A DNA stretch of 64,000 nt from Candidatus Moraniibacteriota bacterium (GCA_028695025.1 JAQVJV010000003.1:637-64636); one strand, 5' to 3'; shown: positions 2,195-31,880, counted from the stretch's first letter. Numbers and translations are program-made. Notes: generated by a model not told the origin, from the sequence alone.

Positions 2195-4237
2195 CTATTT
2201 GCCGAAGTTGCTCATCAATATTCCCAAGTCGCGAACCGTGCATTGCCCGTCGGAGTTGATGTCGCTCCGGGAATTGGTGAGAGCTGCGGCAAGTTTCAGA
2301 AAATCTGATTTAAGAATGTCAAGGTCTGTTGAATTAATTTTGTAATCTTGATTGAGATCTCCCGCGGAAAATGTACCTGCGGAACAATCCACAGCGCAAC
2401 TTGCTTCTGTTTCTCCACGACTGCTATCGCAAACATCATTCCCACAAAACATTGATTGCATAAGAGTTCGGTATTGAACCATGTCACTTGTCGGAAACTT
2501 TGCTTGGTCGGAAGATGGAATGAAATCATTATACCTATCCCAATCATATATCCAAACATATTCGTAATTATCGAAAAGTCTTTTGATTAGCGGCCTGAAA
2601 TCCTCCAGCGTGTAAACTTCAATTGGATAAACATAATCGCTTGAAGTATAGCCCGTAGAAAGGGCAAGAGAATGCGTTGCTCCCAGCTCGTAATTTGGAT
2701 ACTGCGAGAGATACGAGGCCACCGCCTTATCGCGTTCAGCCAATTGATAATCAAGGGAAAACAGCGAGGGATGGTAATAATGCACTTGTTCTCCACCATC
2801 AATGATTGTAAATGTATAGCCCTTTTCACTGGCTCGCTGAAGCATGCCTTTTATAATATTAGCATAGGAGAGATTTGTGTTATCCAGTTTTGAAAAAGCA
2901 AAAAGAATTTTCGCGTTTGGTAAAATATCGTTGGTTATATCGGCCATCCGCGACCCAATATTTGACAATTTGGAAATTACTTCATCCTTAGAAATACCCT
3001 TTTTACTGCCGATATAACCGACTGAATAAGCACAATCCTGGCCATAAGTTTCAGGATCAACCGAAATTCCGGAGGCACCTGTGCTCTTGCTTAAATTGAG
3101 TCCAAGCGAATACATCTTCAAAAAATCTTCCAACGCCTGATCTCCCGCATCAAGAGCGTAGTAAGAATTGCCGGCAATATACTTGTCAAACTCTGATATT
3201 GGATTGGTTGGCTGAGTATATTTACATCCGCAACTGAAAGTTGTGTCATAGCTTTCGTCACAATATCCCGCCAGCCGCGACATCCAGATCTTGGGCCATA
3301 TTTCTTTCGTTTGTCTATTTATAGCATCAATATTTGCCTGAAAACTTGAAATGTCTGCCGTGCGAAAAGTATCCCCGGAGAAAAGAGGCATTGTTACAAC
3401 ATCAAAAGGCGAGTTATCCAATTTATCCAACTCGCTGTATGTCATACCTTGATAGTGTGCATTTCCCGTCCAGAAAATAAGATTTTTAAGCTTCTGCTTG
3501 AATGACTCTTTTCCCGCATCAATTCTTATTTCATCGTCAGAAAGTTGTCGATTGTACATCTTGAGACCGGATAATCTGCCTTTGAAAAATTTCCCGGTTG
3601 TGTCGGTCGGGGAAAGCCCACCAAGAACAAGGCGGCCGCTATCGGTGAGAAAAGTGCTACCTCTTGGGATATACCCCGTACACACAATATTTCCATCGAC
3701 ATACAGCCGTATATATCTGGTGGGACTCAGCGTCATGGCAATCCGCGACCATTGTGAGGTGGGCAATGCGTAATCGCATGTAGTACCGCCCTTGTAGGTA
3801 GTTCCGTCTTCAGTATACGACACAGTAAAAACCAATTTCTTTTGATCATTTCTCCAATGAAGAGAGAGTCCGCTTTTAGAGATCAAATAATCAAAGACCG
3901 ATCCCGGTTGCGCTGAATTATCTTCGACGTATGCCCAAGTTGAGATAGCAAATGATCGCGAAGAAGAAAGATCAAGGCTGGATGAATCCGGAATTTCTAC
4001 GTAATCATTGCTCCCATCAAAAGACAAAGAGCTGCCGCCAGATGGACCACTTTCCCAAATTGACCCTTGAATCGTCCCGTCATTTCCATTCCCGCTCACA
4101 TCATGAAGAACCACCCCCGATCCCTCATGAAAATCCCAGTGGGCAACGAGGCCATCTTCTGCATGAGCGGCGGATATTTTCATGCCGAAAAAAAGTATGG
4201 CTACGACAATGATGGTTTTAGTTTTTTTACTGTTCAT
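2195..4237 (-). CDS. Secreted LamG-like (concanavalin A-like lectin, Laminin_G_3) protein with an uncharacterised central domain and a C-terminal type-I-like dockerin
   Basis: Signal peptide MNSKKTKTIIVVAILFFGMKISAAHA. The LamG_3 signature LVAHWDFHEGSG…DVSGNGNDGT is present. The C-terminus DLNQDYKINSTDLDILKSDFLK…DINSDGQCTVRDLGILMSNFGK is two dockerin Ca-binding repeats of the D.N.D…D pattern. Confidence 0.8.
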   Translation of the reverse strand: MNSKKTKTIIVVAILFFGMKISAAHAEDGLVAHWDFHEGSGVVLHDVSGNGNDGTIQGSIWESGPSGGSSLSFDGSNDYVEIPDSSSLDLSSSRSFAISTWAYVEDNSAQPGSVFDYLISKSGLSLHWRNDQKKLVFTVSYTEDGTTYKGGTTCDYALPTSQWSRIAMTLSPTRYIRLYVDGNIVCTGYIPRGSTFLTDSGRLVLGGLSPTDTTGKFFKGRLSGLKMYNRQLSDDEIRIDAGKESFKQKLKNLIFWTGNAHYQGMTYSELDKLDNSPFDVVTMPLFSGDTFRTADISSFQANIDAINRQTKEIWPKIWMSRLAGYCDESYDTTFSCGCKYTQPTNPISEFDKYIAGNSYYALDAGDQALEDFLKMYSLGLNLSKSTGASGISVDPETYGQDCAYSVGYIGSKKGISKDEVISKLSNIGSRMADITNDILPNAKILFAFSKLDNTNLSYANIIKGMLQRASEKGYTFTIIDGGEQVHYYHPSLFSLDYQLAERDKAVASYLSQYPNYELGATHSLALSTGYTSSDYVYPIEVYTLEDFRPLIKRLFDNYEYVWIYDWDRYNDFIPSSDQAKFPTSDMVQYRTLMQSMFCGNDVCDSSRGETEASCAVDCSAGTFSAGDLNQDYKINSTDLDILKSDFLKLAAALTNSRSDINSDGQCTVRDLGILMSNFGK

Positions 4238-4276
4238 TTTGTTTTTTATGCCATGTATTTTACATTTTATATGATT

Positions 4277-7200
4277 TTATTTCCCCCACCCACTCATGAG
4301 AATACCAAGGTCTTTCACTGTGCATTGGCCATCCTGGTTGATGTCGGAACGGGGGTTTCCTAGGTTCGCTGTTAGTTTCAGGAAATCGGATTTCAGGATA
4401 TCGAAGTCAGCTTGGTTGACTTGGGTGTCTTGGTTTATGTCAGCCGCTGTGTAGCCTTCCTTGGTAAGATATATCTGGTCAATGGCAGGATCAGGTGTCC
4501 AGTTGCCTTTTTCATCCTTGAACCATACATAGACCAGCTGGTTGCCTTTGGTGTTGTCGAGGGTCCAGTCTTTGGTATGGGAATAGGGATAAGTTTGGGC
4601 GTTTTGGAAATTATTAACGTTGGAGATTTTCATTTCGGTGACATCATGGGCATCGGTGGTTTCCATGGTGAGAGTGACTTGATTGTTATCAGTAAAATTG
4701 TAACCTTCGTTGATTCTTGCGATTCCAGCGGGAGGATCAGAGTCTTTTTGGGATAGGAAGTAGTAAGTAGTGGCACGAGATTGATCTTGCCAAGCGCCGG
4801 AGCTGTTTTTTCCAATTATTGATATTGTATGGGAATCATTGGAAAGGTTTGAAAGATTGATTTTGCTTGCTATAGGGGTTTCATTGCTCCAGGATCCTTC
4901 ATCCAGCTTGTATTTGTAGCTGGTGACATTGGTGCCTTGTGGAGTGAGGGCGAGGGAGCTATCTTCTATTACATCTTGAGGATAGTCGGAGATATATGCG
5001 ATTGGGTTCACTGTACTTTGAGCCTCCCAGGTGGCTGGGTTGGTTCCATAACCCGGATCGGTGCATTTCCATTCATGGGTTTGGCCGGAAATTGGGGTTT
5101 TTAATCTATATATGTCGTTTATGAGGCAATTAGTGGTTGAGGTAGGAGGATTGGCGCCGAGGATGAGACGGTTGCCTTGGTATGTGTTGCCCTCGACACC
5201 AGCTGTTGACCCCGTGCCGGTAGCAATCTTGTTGGCTGATTCATCCAGCTGTGTTTTTTGGTTGGAATAGGTGTTTTCGTTGGGAACAGTGATATTTTCC
5301 TTGAGGCCGGTAGTGGTGTTGCGTATGGTGGCGGGAACGGTGGTGTTTTTGTTTAGCAGAATTGTTCCATAGGCATCCTTGTAGATATTCCCCTGTTGAT
5401 TGACACGGCAAAAGGCTTTTTCGTAGTTCCAGTCAGATTCAGCAAGTCTGGTTTGATAGAGATTAATGAGAGATGTTTTTAGGTTGCTGGCTATTGTCGA
5501 GGAATTTACAAGATTAATGAGATCTTCCTGGAAAAATATTTCGTCCGAAGTCGGATTGGAAAAAAACTGTTCCCAGGAGTTATCCGCACCAAAGATGTTG
5601 GTGACATCGGCTTTCGGAACCCAAACAGCAATATCATAATTAACTGTTCCTCCATTGCAACGAAATACAGAGCCGTTTTTAAGGTTGAAATTGTTTAGAT
5701 TCCAGGTTATACCGCTGAAGGAGGTACTGGTACTGAAGAAATTATCAATCTTACCTTGTGCGTAACCGCCATTAATTGTCACACTATTATTGGCCTCTAG
5801 GTCGTTTGTGGATGTATTGATGCCATAGACCAGATCACTGTCATCAATCGTATCATCTGTCTTGAAGCGGCAATTGTTGAAAATAGCGCTTTTATTTTCC
5901 AGATTTTTAAAACATTTTCCGCCGATCCATTGACAATAGGGCGCATAATATATATTAAAAGTTCGATCTGCCTCGGTTGCTTCGTTTTGCTCTGAATAAA
6001 GAAACTCGGTATTATCAGCTGTGAAATCTTCGGTTGCTAAAATATTCGTATGGCTCGACTTTCCGACAATAATTTTCGAGTCTGTGAGAGATATTTTTCC
6101 TTGCCCAGAAAAAGAAAAGGGATAATTGCTAAATACTTTTTTAATATTAACAGTATTACCTTTTTCCGCACTGTAAGTGATATAACCGCCTTTCAAAAGA
6201 TTCATGTCCTCAAATGATATTTGTGAAGGTGCAATTTCCGGATGATCGCTTAGAGGTTCAGAGTGGACTCCTGTTTTATCTCTGTCTCCAATAGTTGTGA
6301 AATTCCTTACTTTGAGACGGTAGTTTCGCCATTTGTCCGAACCAAATTGAATAGCTCCTCGCCAGAGATTATGGCCGATTACATTATAGACTGTAACATC
6401 TGTATTAATGTAAGAACTTATACCGTCTGCAGTGTTATCTTTCAGGTAGCAGTCTTCGATATATACCCTTAACCTGCCTTGGGAGGTCGATTTTGCCGAA
6501 ATTGAAATCGAGGCATTGTGTTCAAGCTCATAACTTGTATACGGTCCTTGTTCCTGACTATTTCCATCGATAGTAAGGCCTCTTATAATTAAGGGTTTTG
6601 AATCTACGGTATTATTATAGCCATAATAACCATAAGTTCCGTTAAATGGCGTCACCATTGAAGATACCCAATTGCCCGACATCGGCGGAACCTTGAGCGT
6701 TGCTCCATAGCCTTCATAAGTCACGTTATCCCGAATACGGACGCTCTTAGCAATATACGTTCCCTCCGGAAACACTACTACTGCTCCTTTTCCCGTAGAT
6801 CCCCCTCCAGCCGTGTAGGCCGCATCGCAAGCTGCTTGAATGGCAGCAGTATCATCGGTTATTCCATCTCCTTTAGCATTGTAAGGAGAGTCTTTTACGC
6901 TTATGAGGGCGGCCCGATCATCATCAAGAATGGTATAGCTATGATTTGTATTGATTCCTAAATGAGCATTTTGGGGATTGGAGAGGGTAAGATTGAAGGT
7001 TTCATCAGTTTCATTGATGGTATCGTTAATGATGGTGATGTTTATGGTCTTTTCTGTTTCTCCGGGGTTGAAAGTGAGGGTGTTTTTTGCAAATTCATAG
7101 TCTTTTCCAGTTCCCTCGGAAAGGTAATACGCTGTTCCTCCAGAGGTTTGATAGTCCACTTTTGCTATTTGGGATGATGAAGCAGAAAGTTTAACTTTTA

Positions 7201-7360
7201 TACTTGCCGTTGTTTGGGTTTCGGAGTTGGAAGAAGAGGCATTTTCGAAAAATACCGCAGGGGTGGATTGGGAGTGAACAAAATTACGGTGAATTATAAA
7301 TACCGCCAAGATAGTTACTCCGAGGACAATGTATCTTATTTTGATTTTTTTGTAATACAT
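4277..7360 (-). CDS. Secreted/anchored protein: N-terminal Calx-beta domain, pectate-lyase-superfamily right-handed beta-helix, beta-sandwich region, C-terminal dockerin
   Basis: N-terminal signal anchor. Calx-beta-like segment KVDYQTSGGTAYYLSEGTGKDYEFAKNTLTFNPGETEKTINITIINDTINETDETFNLTLS. Pectate_lyase_3 hallmark NAKGDGITDDTAAIQAACDAA. C-terminal DINQDTQVNQADFDILKSDFLK…DINQDGQCTVKDLGILMSGWGK is dockerin and is nearly identical to the C-terminus of the neighbouring 680-aa protein. Confidence 0.8.
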   Translation of the reverse strand: MYYKKIKIRYIVLGVTILAVFIIHRNFVHSQSTPAVFFENASSSNSETQTTASIKVKLSASSSQIAKVDYQTSGGTAYYLSEGTGKDYEFAKNTLTFNPGETEKTINITIINDTINETDETFNLTLSNPQNAHLGINTNHSYTILDDDRAALISVKDSPYNAKGDGITDDTAAIQAACDAAYTAGGGSTGKGAVVVFPEGTYIAKSVRIRDNVTYEGYGATLKVPPMSGNWVSSMVTPFNGTYGYYGYNNTVDSKPLIIRGLTIDGNSQEQGPYTSYELEHNASISISAKSTSQGRLRVYIEDCYLKDNTADGISSYINTDVTVYNVIGHNLWRGAIQFGSDKWRNYRLKVRNFTTIGDRDKTGVHSEPLSDHPEIAPSQISFEDMNLLKGGYITYSAEKGNTVNIKKVFSNYPFSFSGQGKISLTDSKIIVGKSSHTNILATEDFTADNTEFLYSEQNEATEADRTFNIYYAPYCQWIGGKCFKNLENKSAIFNNCRFKTDDTIDDSDLVYGINTSTNDLEANNSVTINGGYAQGKIDNFFSTSTSFSGITWNLNNFNLKNGSVFRCNGGTVNYDIAVWVPKADVTNIFGADNSWEQFFSNPTSDEIFFQEDLINLVNSSTIASNLKTSLINLYQTRLAESDWNYEKAFCRVNQQGNIYKDAYGTILLNKNTTVPATIRNTTTGLKENITVPNENTYSNQKTQLDESANKIATGTGSTAGVEGNTYQGNRLILGANPPTSTTNCLINDIYRLKTPISGQTHEWKCTDPGYGTNPATWEAQSTVNPIAYISDYPQDVIEDSSLALTPQGTNVTSYKYKLDEGSWSNETPIASKINLSNLSNDSHTISIIGKNSSGAWQDQSRATTYYFLSQKDSDPPAGIARINEGYNFTDNNQVTLTMETTDAHDVTEMKISNVNNFQNAQTYPYSHTKDWTLDNTKGNQLVYVWFKDEKGNWTPDPAIDQIYLTKEGYTAADINQDTQVNQADFDILKSDFLKLTANLGNPRSDINQDGQCTVKDLGILMSGWGK

Positions 7361-7592: not shown

Positions 7593-7967
7593 ATGCCCAA
7601 CTCTGGCAACGAAGCCAAGAAAATGGAGGCGGAGGTGGAAAAATATACAGGCATCATCAGAAAAGTTTTCATGGACAGTAAAGCGGACGATCAAGGTATG
7701 TATTTCAATATGAAGAAGAATTACCGGATTCAATTGGTGACGAAACCCAGAAAAAACATGAACAAATCCGAATCCAGAAAACGGATGATAGGGGAAATAC
7801 TGACAATCAGAAATATTAATGATTACAAAGAATGTTCTGTTACAATTGAGCCAATGCAGGGACTGACTAAAAATATATTCGAACTGGATAATTGTTGGAT
7901 GAGAGGCAATAGCAGTAATCGCTGGGTATTCGCCGCCATGGGAATTGCAATGCAGATGTCGCAATGA
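7593..7967 (+). CDS. Hypothetical small protein (only plus-strand candidate in a minus-strand block)
   Basis: A 124-aa ORF with protein-like composition. The overlapping minus-strand ORF (7515..7988) is His/Cys/Phe-rich and looks non-coding. No RBS and no recognisable domain, so this call is weak. Confidence 0.3.
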   Translation: MPNSGNEAKKMEAEVEKYTGIIRKVFMDSKADDQGMYFNMKKNYRIQLVTKPRKNMNKSESRKRMIGEILTIRNINDYKECSVTIEPMQGLTKNIFELDNCWMRGNSSNRWVFAAMGIAMQMSQ

Positions 7968-8120: not shown

Positions 8121-11100
8121 CTATTCTCCAAATCTCACCGCGCTTCCTTCGTTCATAACCTGCCGCACCTGCTCCGCTGTCAATGCATAATTATATATCC
8201 GGACATCGTCGATTTGGCCTTGGAAATTATAGGAGCCATTTGAGCGAGCACCGACGGTAAATTTGTAATTATTGTCTATGCTTCCAATGGATGCGTTTGT
8301 TTGTTGATTCTTATATACACCATTCAAATATACTTTAGCCTGCTTCGTTGTTCCTTCAAAAGTTGCAAAATAATGATTCCAATTTGATTTAATAGCGGAT
8401 AAATCACCAACATCGGACTCAACATTGTTTATCCCATCTCCAGCATAAAAATAAAGATGCTGATTGCCGGTTCCCATAAACATGAATCTGTATCCCGCAG
8501 TTGCATAAGCCTCTTGTCCCTTGGATACAGGAAACATCGTGGTCGCATTTGCCCCAAACTTTACCCAAAAGCCAACAGAGAAGCTACCAGTGCCGAAATT
8601 GAAATGTGAAGTATTGGTATCTTCTACCCGATCATCACTCCCATCAAAATCCAAAGCCTTCGCAAATTTCCCATCCACCCAATCCGTCGCCGGATCCATC
8701 GAAGTGAGCGTCCCGGTGTTGCCATTTCCCGAAGAATCATACGCCTTGTCGCCTTGCCCTTCGTCCATTTTCCACCACCCGACGGGCTTCCCGCGGTTAT
8801 AGTCCCAGGCGATTTGCGCCGCGCTGCGGGCGTAGTTGAAAACACTGACTTGATCTATCGAGCCATTAAATTTATACAACTGATCATTTCTAGCACCTAC
8901 ATACGCGTTGGTGGCAGGAGCATTGCTAATAGCACCGACCGAAGCTGTTCCGCTTGGTTTCCCATTAATATAGAACGATAAGTTTGTATCACTATCGCCA
9001 TTCTTTATCACAGTTATATACGTCCATTGATTTAGCGGGATGGTGTCTGTTGAATAACTATCGGTTCCCCCGTTTTTTACAAAATTAAGTTTATTATCAC
9101 TGCTAATCGCGACTCTCCAATAATCACCTGTTGATCCATTTGAATATACACTATGCCAAACTCCACCAACCGTTCTCTTTACCCAAGCGCTAAATGAAAA
9201 GTTAGTCGTAAGACTGCCTATAGGAGGAACCCAAACATAATCATCACTCCCGTTGAAACTCCCCGCATTGTTTGCGTATCCGTCCACCGTCCAATGCGAC
9301 CCCGTTCCGCTCCATGTTCCGTCGTTTCCATTCCCGCTTGTGTCTTTCACAGTGCCTCCGGCTCCTTCATCGAACTTCCATTCCCCCACCGGCGGGTTGC
9401 AGGGAGAAGTGTCGCCAGGAACGCAGTATTCGGCGGCGGCGCCGGTGACGGCCGTACCGTTGTTGTTGGCGGTTTGTCCTCCAAGCACAAGAGATTTTCC
9501 TTGGTTCATATCAATGGCGATTTGATCAGGAGTGAGAGCGGAATTATATATTTTCACTTCGTCCATCATCCCGCTTAGCGCAACTGCTGAATTAGCTGGA
9601 TTAGAGTTGCCAAATCTTATCGCTGTACTGGTGTTTTGAATACCATTCCATGTTTTGGTATTCGATTCGCTGAGAATGCCATCGATATAAACTTCTATTT
9701 TTTTATTAGTCGGGTTAATCACAACTCCAACATAATGCCAGTTTGTGTCATTTATGCTGTTAGTCGGTGTAGCAACCCAATGTTGAGTTGATCCATCGAA
9801 AGTCAAAACGGAAATACAATTTGTGTTGCCCGACCCCTTATCAGCACTTCCAGCCGTATCATCAAACCATATCATCAGAGGCTGATTTGTACTATGCGTT
9901 CCTTTGTATATAAAACCATGGTCTTCCGTGGTGTTGCTTACTTTTGCCCAAAAAGACAGGGTGACGTCCGACAATTCGACAGTGCTCATGTCCGTTGTAT
10001 CCACATAATCATTGCTCCCATCGAAACTCAAAGCCTTTCCAAATTTTCCGGAGTTCGTCCAAGTCGGCGCGGAGGATCCAATACCGAGATTTCCATTATT
10101 GCCGTTTATGCTTGAATCATATGCTGTTCCACCGTTACCCTCATCAAACTTCCAATGAGCGATAGACGAACCCACCGGACTGCCCCCGATCGGATGCCCG
10201 GCGTTCATGTCTTCGATGATTTGCTTCGAAGTCCTAGCGTAGTTATAGACACGGACGTCATCGAGAGAACTATTTGCATACCAGCTACTGCTCCAACCAG
10301 TAGCATGACCCATTTGGACATCATTGGAATTCTTGGCAATACCTTTTGCGGAAACAGACTGTTCTTTGTCCAGGATACCGTTTATATATAACCTGCTCTT
10401 ACCGGCCGCTTGGTCAAATACTCCAGCCAGATGAAACCACTCGCCCTCATCGCCCGAACTCAACTCATCTGTGTTAATCGTATACGCACTCCAACTCTGG
10501 CCTGGGCTGTAGACATTAAAATAAAATTTGTTCACATCCTGCCGCTTGCCTAAAAAATACGAATCGTATTTGAAAATATAAGTCTCGTAGTCTGAATATT
10601 CATCGAAATTAACCCAAGCTTCCAAAGTCAAAGATCCTCCGGCATCAAGACTGTCTGAATCAGCAACATTGACGTAATCATCCACATTATCAAACTTGCA
10701 TGTTCCTCCGTATTTCCCCTGCTGGGTGCAGTCCATTCCGCTCGCATTCGCGCCCCAGTTGGTCGTGCCGTTGTTTCCATTCCCCGATGAATCCACAATT
10801 GTTTGCAAATTTCCGGAAACGTTGTCATCCATCTTCCACCACCCCACCGGACCCGGGCCCCATTCAGCGAGTTGCAAAACTTCATCGGGTGAAAGACCTC
10901 GATTGTAGATACGAACATCATCCATCTCACCTTGAAAATAACCGGCTTCCGTTCTTCCGATCATCAAGTCGTAAACGTTATTTGCTAATGTTTGGCTAAT
11001 TTCTTTACTGGAATAATTTACAAATCCATCACTTCTCCCATTTATATATACTGCTATTTTGTTGTTCCTGATCGTGACAGCTACATGCGTCCACTGATTT

Positions 11101-13577
11101 TGAGATACTTGCGAATTACTGTAGTAAAAAGGATAAGATGACCCAGTACCAAAACTGACGACTATCTTTTTGCTATACCAGGAAGTAGTATGGTACGAAT
11201 ACCCTATTGCCCACTGATCATAACTACAACCGCCGGTACTATGCTTGCCAATAAGTTGCCCTAAATGGCATGATGGACTCAATCCATCAGCACTAGGATT
11301 GATCCACATGGCGAAAGTCGCTTCCCCATTGAAATCGAATGTACTGTTATGAGCCTTTCTTAAATAATCATTATCCCCCCCAAAACCCAACCCATTTCCA
11401 AATCTCCCTCCGGTCTGGTGCCTCACTTCATAGGCGCAGGAATTGGGTGTGTCTGCAAGGGTCGCCACGGTGAAGGTTCTGGTGGAGCCAGTGTAGTCCG
11501 TGATGGTGCGTTCGGTGCCACTCGTGATCGATCCGCAGGCGGCGGTGAAATAAAGAATCATGTTGTTATAGGCATCATCAGAGGAGGAAAGAGATGATCC
11601 GTCCGTGTCGACCATAGTTGTTGTTGTGTTTCCGCTTGCGTCCGACGTTCCTGACTCTTGAGCGTTCGTGAGTGTGCCGTCATTTCCGTTCTTGGAAACG
11701 TCCTCAACGGTGGTTCCGCTCAATTCGTCCATTTTCCAGTGGCCGACAAGCCCGTCCGTCATCCATTTAGGGGATTCGCCTCCGACCGAAACAGATGAGC
11801 CGGTGTTCGTCGCCATGCCGGCTAGTCCGGCGTTATAGTCTTGCTTTATCTGGTCGGCCGTGCGGGCGTAAGAATAGAACTTCATTTCGTCGATGGATGC
11901 TTGCCCGTAGTTTGTTGAAACTTGGCCGATTTTGATGGCTGATCCCGTCAAACCTCCGGTTGTGGTAACAGTAATATAGTGCCATTTGTTGGCGGTGATA
12001 GCCGTTCCTGTTTTTCCATCAACATATACGGTTTCTGTTCCAAAACTATTGGCTGTGATGGCTCCTGAAACGGATTGGATATAGTCGGTGCCGTTGAGGT
12101 CAATAAGTTGTTCCGTGGTGCTGGTTGAATTCACTCTTGCCCAAAAAGATACCGTTTGGATGTTGTTTGCCGTGGAAGCGACCGTCACAACATCATTTGT
12201 GCCGTCAAAGCTCAGACATTTCCCACTCACACATTCCGACTCCGGTTTCCAGGTGGCGCCGGAAATGGCTCCGTCGTTGTTGTTCACTGTTGCGTCCTCG
12301 GCCGTCGTCCCCTGCCCTTCGTCGAAGCGCCAGTAGGCAATCGGTCCGGGACCGGTTTCTTCAGATCCGGCAGAAGTGGTGGGATCAGTGGAGGCGTATT
12401 TGCGGACAAGTACCCAGTCGGTTACCAAATCAGTTATATCTGCTGTCCCCGAGCCAGAACCCAAGAAATAACCCAACCATAAATACGGTGCGTCAGTCCA
12501 GGTCCCTGCATAAGGATTGGTTTGAGACCGATTGTGATAAAAACGCACATAGCTGGCATCGACTGAAAAACCATCGACATAATAGTTATCAAAAGTTGCA
12601 TTATACTGATTAGTTCCGCTAACAATATTGTAGCTACTGACAGAACCATCCGCACCAAAAGCAGCGACTAAACTATTAGACATAGAAGTGTCGAAGTAAA
12701 CAAGTTTTCTAGCTGGGCTATTGCTACCATAGGTTCGTTGCGTATTGGCAATATTAAGACCAGAGTAGCTCACACCAGTTCCTGTCCATTTGCGCCTGGT
12801 TTCATAAACATAATTCTGCGCTCCATCGGTGGCGGTGTTTTTGGTATAGACCGCTCCAGTAGTGGTGGTGAGGGCTCCTCCGGAAATGGAATAGCTTCCG
12901 GTGGCGGTCCATTTGCTGACATCCAAAGCAGAATTGTTGAAATCATCGAAGAATGGGAATACATCGCTTCCGTTTTGGCTCGCAGTGGCACTCGAGTTTC
13001 CGTAATACATATATATAGAGGTGGCGTTGGTTCCATTGAAGACTTTGGGGACTTTGATCCAGATTTTGGTGGCGGCGTTTCCGCAACCGGGGTTGTTTTC
13101 TTCGATCCAGTAGTCGAGTTGTTGGCCGTTGTTCGAGGTGAATCTCATGTCCGAGCAGGTTCCAGTCATTTTTCCGGCGGTGATGAGAGAGGCCGTATCA
13201 ACAGTCATGGAAACTTGGAAATCGGTGAGATCGGCTCCGGTGGAGTTGGTGAGGGATATTTTTTGACGATAAGCCCAATTATCATCCCACCAGGCGGCTT
13301 TGGCAACATTGCGGAAAAAGAGGAATTGGATGGGGGCGACGATGAAAAGGACGATCAGAATCGAAGAAACAATTCTTCTCGGCAGAGTCGCCCAACACCA
13401 TTTGGCGGCTTTCTTCCAAACATTCAATGTTAGGACACTCCGAACATTGAATGTTAGGAGAGATTCCCGAACCGCGCGAAAAAAGCGTTTTGGATGACGG
13501 AAAGCATACCAAAAAGCGACGAAGAATATTTTCAGCTTGAATGTCAGTTTTTGTTTTAGGTGTTTTAGCTTTTGCAT
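8121..13577 (-). CDS. Giant surface protein: N-terminal DUF2341 domain followed by at least five LamG-like (Laminin_G_3) lectin-fold domains
   Basis: N-terminal TM segment, then the DUF2341 hallmark AAWWDDNWAYRQKISLTN…YWIEENNPG…IWIKVP. Recurrent LamG_3 units each carry W(K/R)(F/M)DEG.G…D.SGNGN.G…(V/I)Y.YAR(T/S)..QI (for example PVGWWKMDEGQGDKAYDSSGNGNTGT…VFNYARSAAQIAWDYN). Confidence 0.8.
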   Translation of the reverse strand: MQKLKHLKQKLTFKLKIFFVAFWYAFRHPKRFFRAVRESLLTFNVRSVLTLNVWKKAAKWCWATLPRRIVSSILIVLFIVAPIQFLFFRNVAKAAWWDDNWAYRQKISLTNSTGADLTDFQVSMTVDTASLITAGKMTGTCSDMRFTSNNGQQLDYWIEENNPGCGNAATKIWIKVPKVFNGTNATSIYMYYGNSSATASQNGSDVFPFFDDFNNSALDVSKWTATGSYSISGGALTTTTGAVYTKNTATDGAQNYVYETRRKWTGTGVSYSGLNIANTQRTYGSNSPARKLVYFDTSMSNSLVAAFGADGSVSSYNIVSGTNQYNATFDNYYVDGFSVDASYVRFYHNRSQTNPYAGTWTDAPYLWLGYFLGSGSGTADITDLVTDWVLVRKYASTDPTTSAGSEETGPGPIAYWRFDEGQGTTAEDATVNNNDGAISGATWKPESECVSGKCLSFDGTNDVVTVASTANNIQTVSFWARVNSTSTTEQLIDLNGTDYIQSVSGAITANSFGTETVYVDGKTGTAITANKWHYITVTTTGGLTGSAIKIGQVSTNYGQASIDEMKFYSYARTADQIKQDYNAGLAGMATNTGSSVSVGGESPKWMTDGLVGHWKMDELSGTTVEDVSKNGNDGTLTNAQESGTSDASGNTTTTMVDTDGSSLSSSDDAYNNMILYFTAACGSITSGTERTITDYTGSTRTFTVATLADTPNSCAYEVRHQTGGRFGNGLGFGGDNDYLRKAHNSTFDFNGEATFAMWINPSADGLSPSCHLGQLIGKHSTGGCSYDQWAIGYSYHTTSWYSKKIVVSFGTGSSYPFYYSNSQVSQNQWTHVAVTIRNNKIAVYINGRSDGFVNYSSKEISQTLANNVYDLMIGRTEAGYFQGEMDDVRIYNRGLSPDEVLQLAEWGPGPVGWWKMDDNVSGNLQTIVDSSGNGNNGTTNWGANASGMDCTQQGKYGGTCKFDNVDDYVNVADSDSLDAGGSLTLEAWVNFDEYSDYETYIFKYDSYFLGKRQDVNKFYFNVYSPGQSWSAYTINTDELSSGDEGEWFHLAGVFDQAAGKSRLYINGILDKEQSVSAKGIAKNSNDVQMGHATGWSSSWYANSSLDDVRVYNYARTSKQIIEDMNAGHPIGGSPVGSSIAHWKFDEGNGGTAYDSSINGNNGNLGIGSSAPTWTNSGKFGKALSFDGSNDYVDTTDMSTVELSDVTLSFWAKVSNTTEDHGFIYKGTHSTNQPLMIWFDDTAGSADKGSGNTNCISVLTFDGSTQHWVATPTNSINDTNWHYVGVVINPTNKKIEVYIDGILSESNTKTWNGIQNTSTAIRFGNSNPANSAVALSGMMDEVKIYNSALTPDQIAIDMNQGKSLVLGGQTANNNGTAVTGAAAEYCVPGDTSPCNPPVGEWKFDEGAGGTVKDTSGNGNDGTWSGTGSHWTVDGYANNAGSFNGSDDYVWVPPIGSLTTNFSFSAWVKRTVGGVWHSVYSNGSTGDYWRVAISSDNKLNFVKNGGTDSYSTDTIPLNQWTYITVIKNGDSDTNLSFYINGKPSGTASVGAISNAPATNAYVGARNDQLYKFNGSIDQVSVFNYARSAAQIAWDYNRGKPVGWWKMDEGQGDKAYDSSGNGNTGTLTSMDPATDWVDGKFAKALDFDGSDDRVEDTNTSHFNFGTGSFSVGFWVKFGANATTMFPVSKGQEAYATAGYRFMFMGTGNQHLYFYAGDGINNVESDVGDLSAIKSNWNHYFATFEGTTKQAKVYLNGVYKNQQTNASIGSIDNNYKFTVGARSNGSYNFQGQIDDVRIYNYALTAEQVRQVMNEGSAVRFGE

Positions 13578-13720: not shown

Positions 13721-15310
13721 CTATTTCCCCACATTGAAACTGATAAGCACAAACCCGGCCGTGGCGTTTCCGCTTTCATCTTGGCAGCGGACATAGTACT
13801 TATAGCTCTTTCCACTTTCAACATCCACTTTAGTTGAATGGTCTTTTCCTCCCGTCGTTGAAAAAGTATTGGTCAAACGATTGTAGAGCAGAGAGCTTGT
13901 TCCGTATTTGCAAGTTGCGTCCTCGTTGGTGTGGATCTGCAAAGTGGCTTCCGTCGTGCCGGCCGGAAGAGACCCAGAAGGCGAAGGATCGCTCATGGTC
14001 GGCGGTGTTGTGTCTCCTGAACCCCCCGCCACCGAAAAGCTCACTACATAGTCACTCGTGTTTGCGTTCCCGCTTCCGTCCTGGCATCTTACGTAATAGT
14101 TATAGCTCTGGCCATTCTCCAAACCGTCAATTTTGGTGCTGCTAACTTTGTCGCCTGTTTTGGAGAAAGTATTCTTTATCGAGGAATAACTAGTTTCGGA
14201 CGAGGAGGAATATTTGCAAGTGGCATTGACACTGGTCGCAATTTTCAAGGTGATGGATTTTGTTCCGGCCGCCAACTCTCCGCTAGGCGAGGATTTGGTT
14301 ATGGCAGGGCCGTCGCCTGTTTTGGATCCACCCCCTGAATCCACGGAAAAGCTCACTGTGTAATCGCTGTCATTGACATTGCCGGCCGTGTCTTTGCACC
14401 TGACGTAATATTTGTAGGCCTGGCCGTCTTCCAAGCTGGTCAAACTGCTCGTATGATTTTTCCCGCCGGTATTTGTGAAGTCATTCGCCATTGAGCTGTA
14501 AGCATTGTCTTTTGTTTCGCCATATTTGCAAGTCGCGTTTTCGTTGGTGAGCACCCGCAAAGTGGTTGAGGCTGTTCCGGAAGATAAAGTTCCGCTTGGC
14601 GATCCTCCTGAAACTATCGGCGGCGTGCTATCCGTCACGGAAGGGCTGGTGACGACGTTTTTCACTTGCGTGAGGATGTTGGTCCCGTTCCCATCATCTT
14701 CAATAGCCGCCGAGTCGTCTACGGCTGCCGTCGAATCAAATTTGAGGGTGAGCGCGCTTCCGGAAAAATCAGTGAGGGCTTTCACGGTGATATCGACAAC
14801 CTTAGCCGTTATGGAATTCACACCGGGGGTCGGCTTCCCAAGCGCCACAAAAATTTTTCCGTTTTCGCTATCATCCTCATTTTTTACCTCATAGGGAAAA
14901 TCCGAGGTTGAATCGTCGATCGAAACAATTTGCACCTTGGCACTGTCATAAGTGGCAATCGCCTGCACCGCCACCGCCGCTTTCGTTCCCGTGTCGAGCA
15001 AGATGTGGTCGGTATATTCATCGCCGGCTTTCCGCGCATCCGTATCCGTCACCACCGACATGATCACCGGCGGATTATCCGCCTTGATGCCGACATACCA
15101 GCTGTTCATGGCAGTGAATATGATGGCTGCAAAAAACCCTCCCACAAAAAGGACGATGAGGTAGGCTTTCCAGGCGGCAACTTCCTTGCGGGAAATCAGG
15201 GCGAACTGGTCTCCCAAACCTTGTGTGGCACTGGCCACAGTTTGATCGATTTTTCTTTGTTTGTTATTTTCCATTTTTTTTGGCTTAAAGAGACTTTTTA
15301 TGTCCGGCAT
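13721..15310 (-). CDS. Membrane-anchored surface protein with three tandem ~95-aa Ig/FN3-like repeats
   Basis: One TM helix (AYLIVLFVGGFFAAIIFTAM). The C-terminal half is three repeats following the pattern P.SG.L..GT…TL…T…ATCKY……Y……F..TG…H……L..G..Y.YYVRC.D..GN.N.SDY..SF.V. The ORF track starts at 15454, but that would overlap the CBS gene; I prefer the Met at 15310 (MPDIKSLF…) or 15274 (MENNKQ…), so the start is uncertain. Confidence 0.65.
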   Translation of the reverse strand: MPDIKSLFKPKKMENNKQRKIDQTVASATQGLGDQFALISRKEVAAWKAYLIVLFVGGFFAAIIFTAMNSWYVGIKADNPPVIMSVVTDTDARKAGDEYTDHILLDTGTKAAVAVQAIATYDSAKVQIVSIDDSTSDFPYEVKNEDDSENGKIFVALGKPTPGVNSITAKVVDITVKALTDFSGSALTLKFDSTAAVDDSAAIEDDGNGTNILTQVKNVVTSPSVTDSTPPIVSGGSPSGTLSSGTASTTLRVLTNENATCKYGETKDNAYSSMANDFTNTGGKNHTSSLTSLEDGQAYKYYVRCKDTAGNVNDSDYTVSFSVDSGGGSKTGDGPAITKSSPSGELAAGTKSITLKIATSVNATCKYSSSSETSYSSIKNTFSKTGDKVSSTKIDGLENGQSYNYYVRCQDGSGNANTSDYVVSFSVAGGSGDTTPPTMSDPSPSGSLPAGTTEATLQIHTNEDATCKYGTSSLLYNRLTNTFSTTGGKDHSTKVDVESGKSYKYYVRCQDESGNATAGFVLISFNVGK

Positions 15311-15425
15311 TTTTTTATTTTTAAGGTTATAAAAGAAATTATAAAAAAAACCTTGTTGCAGATATCTTCTCCCGGCAGGAATGATTTTTTTTCTCTTCGG
15401 ATCCATATTCTGTTTTAAATTATTT

Positions 15426-15917
15426 TTATTTTTTCTCTCCTGCGATGAAATCAACTTCTTCTTCCCGAAATTTTCCGACCAGACCCAACACGTCCGCCTT
15501 GCTGACTATCCCAAGCAACTTTTTGTTTTCATCCACGACGGGAATAGGGTTGACTTTTTTTTCCTGGATAAGCCTGATAAGGTTGGTCACCTTTTCATCC
15601 GGCCGGATCGTGACCGCGTCAATCGACATTATGGAGGAAGCGTCAGCCGATAAGATCTCTTTCAAATTACCAGCTTTCTCCGGGAAATACTTGGAAATTT
15701 TAAGATCTTCCAAAATTTTTATGAGCGACGGGATATGCAATTTCTCAAAATCCCGGGTAAGAAAGTCGTTTTCAGTTATCATCCCGACCAATGCGCCGTC
15801 CTCAACCACGGGAATTCCGCGAAAATTATGATCAATCATCATCTTCGCCACTTCACTGATTTTCGTTTTTGGATCGACCGAAACCACCTCCTTGGTCATT
15901 ATGTCTTCTACTTTCAT
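15426..15917 (-). CDS. CBS-domain pair protein
   Basis: Two CBS modules (…EVVSVDPKTKISEVAKMMIDHNFRGIPVVEDGALVGMITENDFL… and …IMSIDAVTIRPDEKVTNLIRLIQEKKVNPIPVVDENKKLLGIVSKADVL…). Confidence 0.8.
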   Translation of the reverse strand: MKVEDIMTKEVVSVDPKTKISEVAKMMIDHNFRGIPVVEDGALVGMITENDFLTRDFEKLHIPSLIKILEDLKISKYFPEKAGNLKEILSADASSIMSIDAVTIRPDEKVTNLIRLIQEKKVNPIPVVDENKKLLGIVSKADVLGLVGKFREEEVDFIAGEKK

Positions 15918-19298: not shown

Positions 19299-22200
19299 TT
19301 ACTTCTCCTCCACGATAAACCAACTGAATTTGATGTCTTGTGCAATAGCTTCCAAAACGTTTACTGAAAATTCTCCCGTGAGCCTCCCTGTTTCCGCATC
19401 GCGGATTTTTTCGATCCAATAGCGGCTCCCGGGATCGCCCTCGAAGCTCACGAAGATTTTGGCTGTTTCCGTCACCGCCGCAGTCTCCACACGCGCGCTT
19501 TTTCCGTCTACTTTCGTGATATCATCCCAACCGTCATTGTCATCATCTTTTTTTACTGAAAGAACAGTTCCGTCTCCCACTGTTGGCGCGTCCTCGTCGT
19601 TTTTCACCGAATAGGCTCCCGCCACCGTTTCATCCGCTTTCACTTTTTCAGCCTGGACAACTTTGGCTTCGAACAATCCGGCGAGCTTCACGTTTCCGTC
19701 TTCGTCGGTTGTCACGATATTCTCCGGAATCTCCCCGCCTGCCGTGACAGTCATTGTCGCCAATTTGTCCTCAAGATCCTTGATACGATCTTCGTGGTCA
19801 AACACCCGCGCGGTGAGTGTTTTTTCCGTTTCGATCATGGCGCCCAAAGTATCGTTCACCGATGTTTCAAAAGCGAGCAGATTATTTTCGCTTTCAGTGA
19901 GCCTTGTTTCAGCATCGGCAAGTTGAGATTGGAGAGTTGAAATTTGCAACTGCTGGTCGCTGATCGCCGTACCGACTATATTCAATTTATCATTCACCGC
20001 CGTCTGCAGTTCCGCTACGCTGGTTGACTGGCTTTCAATTTGCAACTGCTGGTCGCTGATCGTTGATCCTTGTTCGTTGATCATCGCCTGCTGTTCCTGT
20101 ATCGCCTTTGTGAGCATCGGCGTGAACATGGCATAGCTCAAACCTTTGTATCCGCTAGCGTTGGTGGAAACAAGTTCCGGTGAAATTTTTTCCACGTCCT
20201 GCGCGATGAACCCGGCATGGAGAGGGTCGGAACTATCCTCGCTCTTCATGTGGAAAGTCACCGGATCAAGCGCCATCACCTTGTCGAGCGCGGAATCCAT
20301 GGACTCGATATCTTTTTTCATCCGTACGTCGGAAGTGCTTCCCCAAGTTCCGTCAGAAGTGACGACATAACCCGTCGCTGTTCCGGTATATACTTCGAGT
20401 TTGTAGCCCGGGGCAGTCGTCCCGATGCCGACATTGCCAGCGAAATAGTTTTTATTTGAAGAAGAATATTGATAAACGCCCCAAGTGTTTGTGCCTCCGA
20501 TTGAATCAATATACAGTCCATAGCTATTTGTCACGGTGCCTGTGGCAGAAACACGCGCATATAAAGCTCGCGCATCAGAGATTGTCCCTCCTGATCCTTG
20601 CTGTTCAATATTTCCCACTACTCCATAAGCATTATTTACCGTTCCTGATGTATGAGTTCCGATTACGTAACCTCTTACTCCGGTTATTGAAGTAGCGGTA
20701 TATCCTGCCGGGTTCGTAACAACACCATCAAGTGCCCATAAATTTAGGGCATGTCCATTTTGATTTGAATAATTTGTAGCATTAGCCCTAAATGAAACTG
20801 CGTAATGATCGCCTGTCAACGTTCCTGAAGTTTTAAGGTCGCTGACGGTCAGAAATCGGCTTGCGCTTGAAATATCCACACTATTATCATTTACATACAG
20901 TTTTGCCCCCGGAGTCGTCGTCCCTATCCCCACATTCCCGGAAGTTGCCTGTATCATTGCTCCAAGTGCTGCCGAATTGCTAACGCGAAAATAAATGTCT
21001 GAGGCTGATCTCAACGTCACATCGTCTGATGCCCCCCCTGTAGTTCCGATAAGATCAGAAGATCCAATTAATCCTGAATTTGTTTCCCCGCTGTTCAATA
21101 GTAAATAGGAGTCAAATCGGCTTGTGCCGTTGACATGAAGAAGTCTTTGCGGATTCGTCGTCCCTATCCCCACATTCCCCTGCAATATGGTCTTCGTGAT
21201 CGAGGTGTTTCCGAGGGTTACGGAGTTGCTTCCCGCCCCGATGGCGGAAGCTCCGATGACGATTTCATTCGTGTCCCCGTCGGCGAGGGCTCTCGTGTCA
21301 TATCCGAGATAGAGAGAACTGTAGGAAGTCTGGTTGTTTCCCCCGCCGGAGATGTATCTTCCGGAATAATATCCCAGGGCGGTGTTATTGTATCCGGTGG
21401 TGTTGGAGTAGAGGGAATTCACTCCCAGGGCGGTGTTATTGTATCCGGTGGTGTTGTATTGGAGGGAATTCACTCCCAGGGCGGTGTTATAGTATCCGGT
21501 GGTGTTGGAGTAGAGGGAATTTACTCCCAGAGCAACATTTTGGTATCCGGTGGTGTTGGAGTAGAGGGAACTTGTTCCCAGAGAGGTGTTCGAGTATCCA
21601 GTGGTGTTGGAGTAGAGGGATTGATATCCCAGGGCGGTGTTATTGTATCCGGTGGTGTTGGAGTAGAGGGAATTCACTCCCAGGGCGGTGTTATTGTATC
21701 CGGTGGTGTTGCAGTAGAGGGAATATGTTCCCAGAGCGGTATTAGAGTATCCGGTGGTGTTGCAGTAGAGGGATTGATATCCCAGGGCGGTGTTATTGTA
21801 TCCGGTGGTGTTGTATCTTCCGCCGTATCTTCCGATGAAAGTGTTTGCTAAACTGGCCGTTGACGAGCGGATTTCCAGGGCGGAAGTCCCCGTGCTGTCG
21901 TTCAAGACGTAGGTCGGGCTGTATGTTCCGGTGATCCTTTTTATGGAAATGACAATGGTCCCGTTGAAGTCGGAGGTCGGGGTGATGGAAAGGGTTCCGG
22001 TTCCGGTGGCTTTCGGCCCCCATGTCCCGGTGGAATACAAACCGCCCTTGCTTTCCGAACCGAAAGAGATGGTGAATGTTCCAGCCGTCCTTCCGGTGAC
22101 GGTATAGGATATTTGGTAGAGATAATTTGTGGTGGGAACAACGGTGGTATCGGTGAGGGCGTCCGTGTATCCTGTCGTATGGGTGAATCCGCTGGCGAAG

Positions 22201-30033: not shown

Positions 30034-30684
30034 TTATCTCTTCGCCCAGCCGAACATCTGGCCGAAAGCGTCGCTCAAAAGATCGAAGATGGAAACGTTC
30101 GGCGCTCCGGTATAGAAAGCGAGCTTTCCGGATTCCGCAAAATTCCCCCATTTGTCTTTTGCGTTCACGACATATGAGTAGGAAGTGCTGTAATTCAATT
30201 TGGTTATTTCGGCGCTATGCACGAATCCATAACCGTCTTCGGAAATTATTTTTCCCTCCGTCTGCCCTTCGCGCATATACTCGATCGAAGAGAGGCACGG
30301 CTTGTTGGTCGTCCAGCTCAAAAGGAACCGGACTTCTTCATCTGTTTTGGTCATCAAAAGTTCTGAGCGCAAATCTTCGATTTCGGGAGCGAGCGACTGC
30401 TGGCCTGACGGAACCGTAATGGCCGCTCCTCCGAAATTGATGTGCGGCGTCCGGAAGTTTTCACTTGAAAAAGAATTTGTCGCATTTTGATTCTCCTCTT
30501 CGCCCAAGACGGATCCGCTCGGACTTTGCTCGTTTGAAATACTGGCCGTTTCCACGTTCGTTTTCTTCTCAATATATTTTGAATAAAGGTACGGAGAAAA
30601 ATATCCGAGTGAAAATATGATCGTGGCCAGGAGCGCGTATTTTGAAAATTTTTTTAATTTCATAAATCCTGAATTATAAATCAA
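30034..30684 (-). CDS. Membrane-anchored small secreted protein with a purple-acid-phosphatase-N-terminal-like (FN3) domain
   Basis: N-terminal anchor KYALLATIIFSLGYF. The C-terminal VRFLLSWTTNKPCLSSIEYMREGQTEGKI…HSAEITKLNYSTSYSYVV resembles the Pur_ac_phosph_N beta-sandwich. The start may be the internal Met (MKLKKF…). Confidence 0.6.
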   Translation of the reverse strand: MIYNSGFMKLKKFSKYALLATIIFSLGYFSPYLYSKYIEKKTNVETASISNEQSPSGSVLGEEENQNATNSFSSENFRTPHINFGGAAITVPSGQQSLAPEIEDLRSELLMTKTDEEVRFLLSWTTNKPCLSSIEYMREGQTEGKIISEDGYGFVHSAEITKLNYSTSYSYVVNAKDKWGNFAESGKLAFYTGAPNVSIFDLLSDAFGQMFGWAKR

Positions 30685-30686
30685 AT

Positions 30687-31865: not shown

Positions 31866-31880
31866 AGAAAAGTTTAAAAA

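Follow-up and report, generated by a model that had tools for sequence, protein, structure and literature searches.

Dockerin-tagged proteins and a candidate membrane-anchored cohesin in Candidatus Moranbacteria

Main finding

The DNA analyzed here, 64,000 nucleotides from Candidatus Moraniibacteriota bacterium (GCA_028695025.1 JAQVJV010000003.1:637-64636; the whole stretch is called the window), carries two adjacent genes, gA and gB, whose products end in dockerin modules, and a third gene, p577, whose product is a candidate membrane-anchored cohesin protein. On balance, these genes probably represent a minimal, non-cellulosomal cohesin-dockerin surface display in an uncultured, ultra-small bacterium of Candidatus Moranbacteria (Candidate Phyla Radiation, CPR, also Patescibacteria), in which the dockerins of gA and gB pair with p577. 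An earlier note on this DNA had drawn attention to positions 2195-4450, a range that covers the whole of gA and only the dockerin part of gB; it missed a middle domain of ~360 amino acids (aa) in gA, as well as the name under which gA is listed at NCBI, where its dockerin is mentioned.

Dockerin tails of gA and gB

The two genes are co-directional on the minus strand, with 39 bp between them, and each encodes a dockerin at its extreme end:

2195-4237, minus strand: gA, open reading frame (ORF) of 680 aa, with signal peptide, LamG domain, probable beta/alpha barrel, Cys-rich linker and dockerin
2198-2368, minus strand: type I dockerin of gA, aa 624-680, extreme C-terminus, from Pfam Dockerin_1
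4277-7360, minus strand: gB, ORF of 1027 aa, with signal peptide, Calx-beta domain, pectate-lyase-like beta-helix, ~630 aa without a family, and dockerin
4280-4450, minus strand: type I dockerin of gB, aa 971-1027, from Pfam Dockerin_1 and a hidden Markov model (HMM) of the dockerin subtype (E 1.2e-35)

Both tails exceeded the gathering score of Pfam Dockerin_1 (PF00404, 22.9 bits), gA with 29.0 bits over aa 625-675 (E 1.2e-6) and gB with 26.0 bits over aa 973-1021 (E 1.1e-5), which bears out the prediction of two adjacent genes with dockerin C-termini. The gA tail also matched directly the solved dockerin of Clostridium thermocellum CelS (1daq/2mte, E 1.5e-5), and the gB tail matched it more weakly (2mte, E 6.5e-3). 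A profile of 33 sequences of the subtype, searched against the PDB, reached the CelS dockerin (2mte/1daq) with E 5e-13, the match (positions 4-52) taking in both calcium loops. The top 15 matches of this search were all cellulosomal type I dockerins, while calmodulin EF-hands trailed at ~1e-3 and over one loop only, indicating that the tails are more than a generic EF-hand. The EF-hand alternative, which the earlier note had named as a possible refutation, was not upheld.

Each tail is composed of two 22-residue segments, in which a 12-residue loop with D1, N3, D5 and D12 is followed by a helix. The segments of gA are DLNQDYKINSTD followed by LDILKSDFLK and DINSDGQCTVRD followed by LGILMSNFGK, giving two calcium loops, and the layout of gB is identical; across the 33 sequences, D1, D5 and D12 show no variation in either loop. 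The two loops per tail, together with homology to the CelS dockerin, agree with the duplicated calcium-binding repeats described earlier. That both tails are type I dockerins is close to certain, and they are predicted to depend on Ca2+.

The two dockerins had also been described as near-identical, which was an overstatement. At the protein level, 40 of 62 aligned residues are identical (65%, or 69% over a 58-aa core), while DNA identity is 59%, with third codon positions accounting for 42 of the 77 mismatches. The higher identity of the proteins than of the DNA, and the mismatches at third positions, indicate that the two are ancient duplicates under purifying selection; a recent duplication or an assembly repeat as the origin of the tails was ruled out by the low DNA identity. 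A six-frame motif scan and the subtype HMM found no dockerins in the 64 kb of the window besides these two.

gA is identical to the NCBI entry 'MAG: dockerin type I domain-containing protein [Candidatus Moranbacteria bacterium]' (MAG, metagenome-assembled genome), and gB corresponds to MDD3486962.1, 'Calx-beta domain-containing protein', a name in which the dockerin goes unmentioned. Thus, the dockerin of gA is already annotated at NCBI, and that of gB has no name there. The contig bearing gA and gB is also present in the Logan assembly of SRR22315504.

The candidate cohesin anchor p577

The earlier note held that no cohesin-bearing anchor lay within the window. This is probably wrong, because p577 is homologous to cohesin proteins that are recognized by Pfam. 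The features of p577 are as follows:

13721-15454, minus strand: p577, candidate membrane-anchored single-cohesin protein; ORF of the 577-aa numbering
15113-15181, minus strand: single transmembrane helix VAAWKAYLIVLFVGGFFAAIIFT, from a hydropathy scan, after a Lys/Arg-rich N-terminal tail
14645-15067, minus strand: putative divergent cohesin module, aa 130-270 in the 577-aa numbering, from homology to Pfam-positive relatives
13724-14608, minus strand: stalk of three FN3-like repeats with the motif ..ATCKY..YYVRCxD..GN, from weak Pfam matches

Pfam Cohesin (PF00963) has a cut-off of 24.1 bits, and it gave no match across the window ORFs of at least 150 aa, with E<=10 applied to proteins of no known family. 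Searches with phmmer, in which a CipA cohesin (reference sequence checked against 1aoh) and a Bacteroidota cohesin were compared with all ORFs of the window and the related loci, returned noise only. A 420-aa protein of Moranbacteria GW2011_GWC2_40_12 (L005:2408-3670; GenBank KKT32261.1, 'hypothetical protein') ranked first with both queries and was for this reason tested against Pfam, where it scored 29.1 bits for Cohesin. Metagenome relatives in loci L014, L017 and L018 scored 27.4-29.8 bits, and the relative in L015 passed the cut-off too. p577, which is listed at NCBI as MDD3486965.1, 'hypothetical protein PHF35_01130', is homologous to the L005 protein (phmmer E 7.6e-48). A profile of three Pfam-positive cohesin modules matched aa 130-270 of p577 with E 4.9e-43 over profile positions 4-144 of 146, and the module aligned without gaps to its Pfam-positive relatives at 38-47% identity.

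Comparisons with solved structures gave weak but consistent support. When the family profile was searched against the PDB, the best single-stretch matches were cohesins of Ruminococcus flavefaciens (E 0.03-0.07); the designer 'Bagel' propellers heading that list were discarded, as their score was the sum of eight insignificant repeats (i-Evalue ~700 each). About 25 of the top 50 Foldseek matches of a low-confidence AlphaFold2 (AF2) model of the module were cohesins, among them non-cellulosomal ones and representatives of types I, II and III. It is likely, judging above all from the homology to Pfam-positive relatives, that p577 carries a cohesin.

Start candidates for p577 are at 15406 (561 aa, the Logan call), 15310 (529 aa) and 15274 (517 aa, the NCBI start), and the protein probably begins at 15310, which fits the relatives best, or at 15274, not at 15454. 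The transmembrane helix is kept in all relatives, and the family has a common layout of a short Lys/Arg-rich tail, one transmembrane helix, the cohesin and then the stalk, so ordered from the N-terminus. p577 is thus predicted to be a type II membrane protein with an N-in/C-out topology. A Pfam scan of p577 revealed no SLH or sortase-signal match, and the anchor would be the N-terminal transmembrane helix. Nor did Pfam detect a carbohydrate-binding module (CBM) family in p577 or its relatives, each of which has one cohesin per protein.

The weak Pfam matches of the stalk were to Pur_ac_phosph_N, DUF7800 and fn3, with ATCKY occurring at aa 307, 411 and 513; this stalk recurs in the relative in locus L002, where the matches to fn3/Pur_ac_phosph_N are significant. 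A FN3-like module of ~100 aa from this stalk is also found in P0101, P0125, P0133 and L002:3-1136. In several tagged proteins it lies directly upstream of the dockerin, suggesting a spacer common to anchor and cargo.

Linkage of cohesin and dockerin genes

p577 is located ~6.4 kb upstream of gB and is likewise on the minus strand. Cohesin genes were found no more than ~7 kb from dockerin genes in four independent loci, with the following gene orders:

Window: p577, LamG giant, then gB and gA (6.4 kb)
L002: cohesin gene, with two dockerin genes directly after it
L017: dockerin gene, CBS gene, cohesin gene
L018 / L005: dockerin gene(s), AAA gene, CBS gene, cohesin gene

This proximity was observed in every independent cohesin locus long enough for judgement. 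Dockerin genes in tandem pairs were also seen in L002, L003, L007 and L018, and each genome seems to hold one socket gene and several scattered tag genes. Scans for promoters and terminators gave results that were not above the shuffled expectation, and so no operon is claimed.

Distribution and cargo of the dockerin subtype

An exhaustive search for the dockerin subtype with HMMER, covering 1.84 billion cluster representatives, returned 1166 proteins at E<=1e-3, of which 80 were at E<=1e-10. Against an index of 5.8 billion proteins, the 62-aa dockerin profile retrieved one fragment (P0088), the word index being unsuited to such short queries. Close relatives among the top ~45 proteins carry the tag at their extreme C-terminus. 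The consensus of the subtype is ADLNQDxxVNxTDFxILKTDFLKLTAxLxNPRSDIDGDGQxTxKDVGILMSxWK, in which the linker between the loops is conserved as strongly as the loops themselves, an unusual feature, and identity is 50-75% across unrelated cargo proteins, linker included. The tag also varies by genome, reading QCT.RDLGILMS in the window and QAT.KDVGIMMS in GW2011_GWC2_40_12.

Among 40 tagged proteins examined, 36 matched Pfam Dockerin_1. Their cargo consisted of Beta_helix (11 proteins), NosD (5), LamG (4) and Calx-beta (3) domains, along with GH123_N, CBM6/35/96, DUF2341 and BNR/Sortilin. The 25 families listed for these 40 proteins included no GH5, GH9, GH48 or other classical cellulase.

In GTDB species genomes, the tag was found in Candidatus Moranbacteria GW2011_GWC2_40_12 and in a Moraniibacteriota MAG, as well as on two contigs labelled Bathyarchaeia that have the gene order of Moranbacteria. 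These contigs (L002 and L004; DATGZC01, Candidatus Bathyarchaeia archaeon SMAG_U10653) share with the window the order M16 peptidase, AI-2E transporter, TP_methylase, MetRS, TatD, ABC and FtsX. Since they combine this gene order with the dockerin subtype and the cohesin family, the 'archaeal' contigs are probably mis-binned.

The same scan of GTDB species genomes revealed weaker dockerin variants in other Patescibacteria, which may have comparable pairs of anchor and tag, as one locus hints. Downstream of and adjoining one gene with a variant dockerin (INKDG.VD..DYS), L010:6725-7756 encodes a 343-aa protein with a membrane helix, a beta-rich region and a Pro-rich linker. This protein faintly resembles the N-terminal signature of cohesins (hmmsearch E 0.03, hhalign P 0.0016) and has no Pfam match.

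Domains of gA and gB

The lectin-fold and lyase-fold domains that the earlier note had assigned to the two genes were recovered as Laminin_G_3 in gA and Pect-lyase_RHGA_epim, accompanied by Calx-beta, in gB. The domains other than the dockerins are listed below:

3527-4018, minus strand: gA, Laminin_G_3 / ConA-like lectin-glucanase domain, aa 74-237 (Pfam E 2.5e-21)
2450-3520, minus strand: gA, middle domain, aa 240-596, nearly orphan
2381-2449, minus strand: gA, Cys-rich linker FCGNDVCDSSRGETEASCAVDCS, aa 597-619, read from the sequence
6917-7270, minus strand: gB, Calx-beta domain, aa 31-148 (Pfam E 8.9e-21)
6347-6901, minus strand: gB, right-handed beta-helix, pectate-lyase-like, aa 154-338 (Pfam Pect-lyase_RHGA_epim E 2.8e-11)

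The N-terminus of gA is hydrophobic and resembles a signal peptide (MNSKKTKTIIVVAILFFGMKISAAHA, with ED after the cleavage site, which was judged by eye), and that of gB is hydrophobic in the same way; both proteins are predicted to be secreted via Sec signal peptides.

The middle domain of gA had a single homologue, P0238, among 5.8 billion proteins (26% identity, E 1.5e-11), with which it shares the motifs DPE.YG, IDGGE and YPNYELG, and full-length gA as the query retrieved LamG relatives only. With one homologue, no useful alignment was available for this domain. Its AF2 model was poor (predicted local distance difference test, pLDDT, 47.5), with an alternation of strands and helices visible, and nearly all Foldseek matches of the model in the PDB were TIM barrels with a template modelling (TM) score of ~0.3, among them class III chitinase, GH53 galactanase and endoglycoceramidase. 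According to this model, the middle domain is probably a (beta/alpha) barrel, and a glycoside-hydrolase-like barrel is plausible. No specific enzyme activity is claimed, as the fold matches go no further than 'TIM-barrel-like'. The linker FCGNDVCDSSRGETEASCAVDCS, directly N-terminal of the gA dockerin, contains 4-5 Cys per 23 residues and belongs to no assigned family, and gB is without such a linker.

Sequence matches of the gB beta-helix in the PDB included a beta-1,3-glucanase, pectin lyase and mannuronan C5-epimerases. The whole architecture of gB is found again in P0134. In L017:2469-3853, a 34-residue N-terminus of TatD is in frame with a dockerin, a Calx-beta domain and a pectate-lyase-like helix, making a gB-like protein with the dockerin on its N-terminal side; this may reflect either a chimeric assembly or a genuine rearrangement.

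Proposed display system and alternatives

In the proposed system, gA and gB would be exported through Sec signal peptides, gA bringing its LamG domain and probable beta/alpha barrel, and gB its Calx-beta domain and pectate-lyase-like beta-helix. Their dockerins would then dock, in a Ca2+-dependent manner, into the single cohesin of p577, a type II membrane anchor in which a short tail in the cytoplasm would be followed by one transmembrane helix, the cohesin and three FN3-like repeats. One conserved socket could in this way place any dockerin-tagged protein of the genome at the cell surface, with one cargo per anchor, and the likely role of the displayed proteins would be binding or cutting glycans, whether environmental or belonging to a host cell. 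The binding of the gA and gB dockerins to the p577 cohesin, like the biological role, is predicted; the binding has indirect support from the gene linkage in four independent loci.

Several observations weigh against this proposal. p577 itself gave no Pfam Cohesin match at E<=10, either as the full protein or as aa 115-275 alone, and its relatives exceed the Pfam cut-off by just 3-6 bits. The AF2 model of the p577 module, obtained from the single sequence, is all-beta and of low confidence (pLDDT 51.7); its top Foldseek match, the cohesin 5nrk_A, is weak (E 7.8e-3, TM 0.47), and the matches other than cohesins are CBM2 and CBM3 sandwiches. An hhalign comparison with cohesin 7 of CipA recovered the N-terminal signature only (P 0.0085, probability 4.7%). 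The linked loci represent only about four independent lineages, and no cohesin lies within 10 kb of the dockerin loci L003 and L004, which come from the same MAGs; linkage of the cohesin and dockerin genes is frequent, not obligatory. Finally, the analysis spans 64 kb of the genome, and better-matched cohesins are possible elsewhere.

Part of this evidence would also fit real dockerins with another partner, i.e., a different cohesin located elsewhere in the genome or on another organism or host, with p577 binding, for example, a glycan. The absence of a direct Pfam match, the CBM2 and CBM3 folds among the matches of p577, the coverage of 64 kb and the two dockerin loci without a nearby cohesin are all consistent with this, and host-directed adhesion has been proposed for dockerin proteins of Saccharibacteria (PMC10633639) and Omnitrophota (PMC10066038). 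However, relatives of p577 pass the Pfam cut-off for cohesins and none matches a CBM family, a cohesin gene stands beside dockerin genes in the four independent loci, and no second cohesin-like ORF was found in the window or the related loci retrieved, making another partner unlikely. It is also distinctly unlikely that the tags are orphan dockerins, whose function would lie in Ca2+-dependent folding or stability, or in sorting or attachment of another kind that involves no cohesin, as has been suggested for many non-cellulosomal dockerins. Dockerin-like modules are reportedly widespread, non-cellulolytic organisms included, where they may act as adhesins, and many such organisms are said to be without a recognizable cohesin; moreover, the tag is always at the extreme C-terminus, with a conserved MSxWK ending that resembles a sorting signal. 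Yet a Pfam-positive cohesin family is present in the same MAGs and adjoins dockerin genes, and the conservation of the dockerin across unrelated cargo, linker included, is the pattern expected for many tags and one receptor.

A true cellulosome, with multi-enzyme degradation of plant cell walls on a multi-cohesin scaffoldin, seems highly improbable. Type I dockerins and a cohesin are both present, and some cargo of the subtype carries CBM6, CBM35 or CBM96, but p577 and its relatives have a single cohesin and no CBM3, the family list of the 40 cargo proteins contains no classical cellulase, and the host is a CPR bacterium with a small genome. The display of gA and gB through the cohesin of p577 is preferred here.

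Comparison with known systems

The proposed display mode belongs to the known non-cellulosomal type of cohesin-dockerin systems and involves no new principle. One of its closest analogues in mechanism is the OlpA/OlpC type of C. thermocellum (Coh-OlpA-Doc918, PDB 3ul4), in which a cell-bound protein likewise has one type I-like cohesin that holds a single tagged enzyme, and many cargo proteins compete for the socket; 3ul4_A was ranked 11 among the fold-search matches of the p577 model. OlpA is attached to the wall via SLH repeats. In contrast, p577 has no SLH, and an N-terminal transmembrane helix with a FN3-like stalk is found instead; the cargo is also not cellulase, and the host is a CPR bacterium instead of a cellulolytic Firmicute.

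Equally close in mechanism, the non-cellulosomal systems of Archaeoglobus fulgidus (cohesin 2xdh) and Clostridium perfringens (cohesins 2jh2, 2vo8) likewise function outside plant-cell-wall degradation, in small complexes that are roughly 1:1 instead of on large scaffoldins, and these structures were among the fold matches of p577 at ranks 22, 27, 35 and 37. The cohesin and dockerin of A. fulgidus are a working binding pair that has been used for surface display (PMC12484212). The system described here differs from both in taxon and sequence, and in the predicted pairing of one membrane-anchored cohesin with many proteins that form a large family and bear, at the C-terminus, a dockerin subtype strongly conserved down to its linker. 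With the classical cellulosome (CipA/ScaA) it shares the two-segment, calcium-loop design and a dockerin homologous to the type I dockerins of CelS, CelD and Xyn10B (the last labelled 'endo-1,4-beta-xylanase Y' in the PDB), the subtype profile reaching E-values down to 5e-13 across this set. Unlike the cellulosome, it is without a multi-cohesin scaffoldin, CBM3 or cellulase cargo in the proteins examined.

Among small-genome, host-associated lineages, an essential dockerin-domain protein has been described in a Saccharibacterium (SEML1_0315; PMC10633639), and giant proteins with multiple dockerins are known from Omnitrophota (PMC10066038; bioRxiv 10.1101/2023.11.21.568195). As is proposed here for Moranbacteria, these are PF00404 dockerins on envelope proteins, for which adhesion or glycan processing has been proposed. 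No cohesin partner is given in these reports, whereas a linked candidate cohesin gene is present here, and the dockerins of Omnitrophota form internal arrays in giant proteins, in contrast to the single C-terminal tag per cargo protein in Moranbacteria. Among the papers searched, none dealt with dockerins in Moranbacteria or with cohesin and dockerin in Parcubacteria, and the only mention of a dockerin in Patescibacteria that was found is one line on the essential protein of the Saccharibacterium (PMC10633639). As regards the CPR, it is fair to say, as was remarked earlier, that dockerin-based display is poorly characterized once cellulolytic Firmicutes and a few archaea are set aside.

Neighboring genes

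Between the cohesin gene and the gA/gB pair, 8121-13577 (minus strand) encodes a giant protein of 1818 aa with DUF2341 and six Laminin_G_3 domains, an N-terminal membrane helix at aa 61-79 and no dockerin. In the 760-bp gap between this LamG giant and gB, a 124-aa ORF lies on the opposite strand (7593-7967, plus strand); it is among the genes called in the Logan assembly, and no family match is on record for it. Immediately upstream of the cohesin gene is a CBS-pair gene (15426-15917, minus strand), and this pairing is conserved in L005, L017 and L018.

A 216-aa membrane protein at 30034-30684 was also considered as an anchor and dropped, having weak FN3-like matches and being syntenic with an ABC transporter. 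A membrane protein of ~210 aa with a weak FN3-like domain stands beside a MacB/FtsX-type ABC pair in the window (30034-33488, minus strand), L004 and L005, and the association is kept in all Moranbacteria loci examined. The gene at 19299-29447 (minus strand) encodes a protein of 3382 aa (NCBI MDD3486968.1, 'tail fiber domain-containing protein') in which almost nothing is recognizable beyond a Peptidase_S74 intramolecular-chaperone domain (aa 3039-3093). The GC content of this gene (0.50-0.55) is clearly higher than that of the surrounding DNA (0.40-0.46).

Implications

The CPR/Patescibacteria make up a large part of bacterial diversity, and their surface organization and engagement with hosts are largely unknown. 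With these results, a protein family listed as hypothetical in GenBank (MDD3486965.1, KKT32261.1) gains a putative identity as cohesin carriers. If the proposed pairing is true, 'missing cohesin' verdicts can stem from divergent cohesins that fall just below HMM thresholds, and a compact, strongly conserved pair from a new lineage would be added to the toolbox of orthogonal pairs for designer complexes.

More tentatively, Moranbacteria, and perhaps other Patescibacteria, might possess a lineage-wide display of 'one socket, many plugs', an exchangeable surface armoury with which these ultra-small, probably host-dependent cells would both attach to the envelope of a partner and feed on it. A single membrane cohesin would then take up any of dozens of dockerin-tagged proteins that bind or cut glycans, according to which of them is secreted, and the genome-specific variants of the dockerin would reflect co-evolution with the resident cohesin. 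A conserved cohesin-dockerin pair would provide a testable wiring diagram of which proteins these bacteria place on their surface, and through which anchor.

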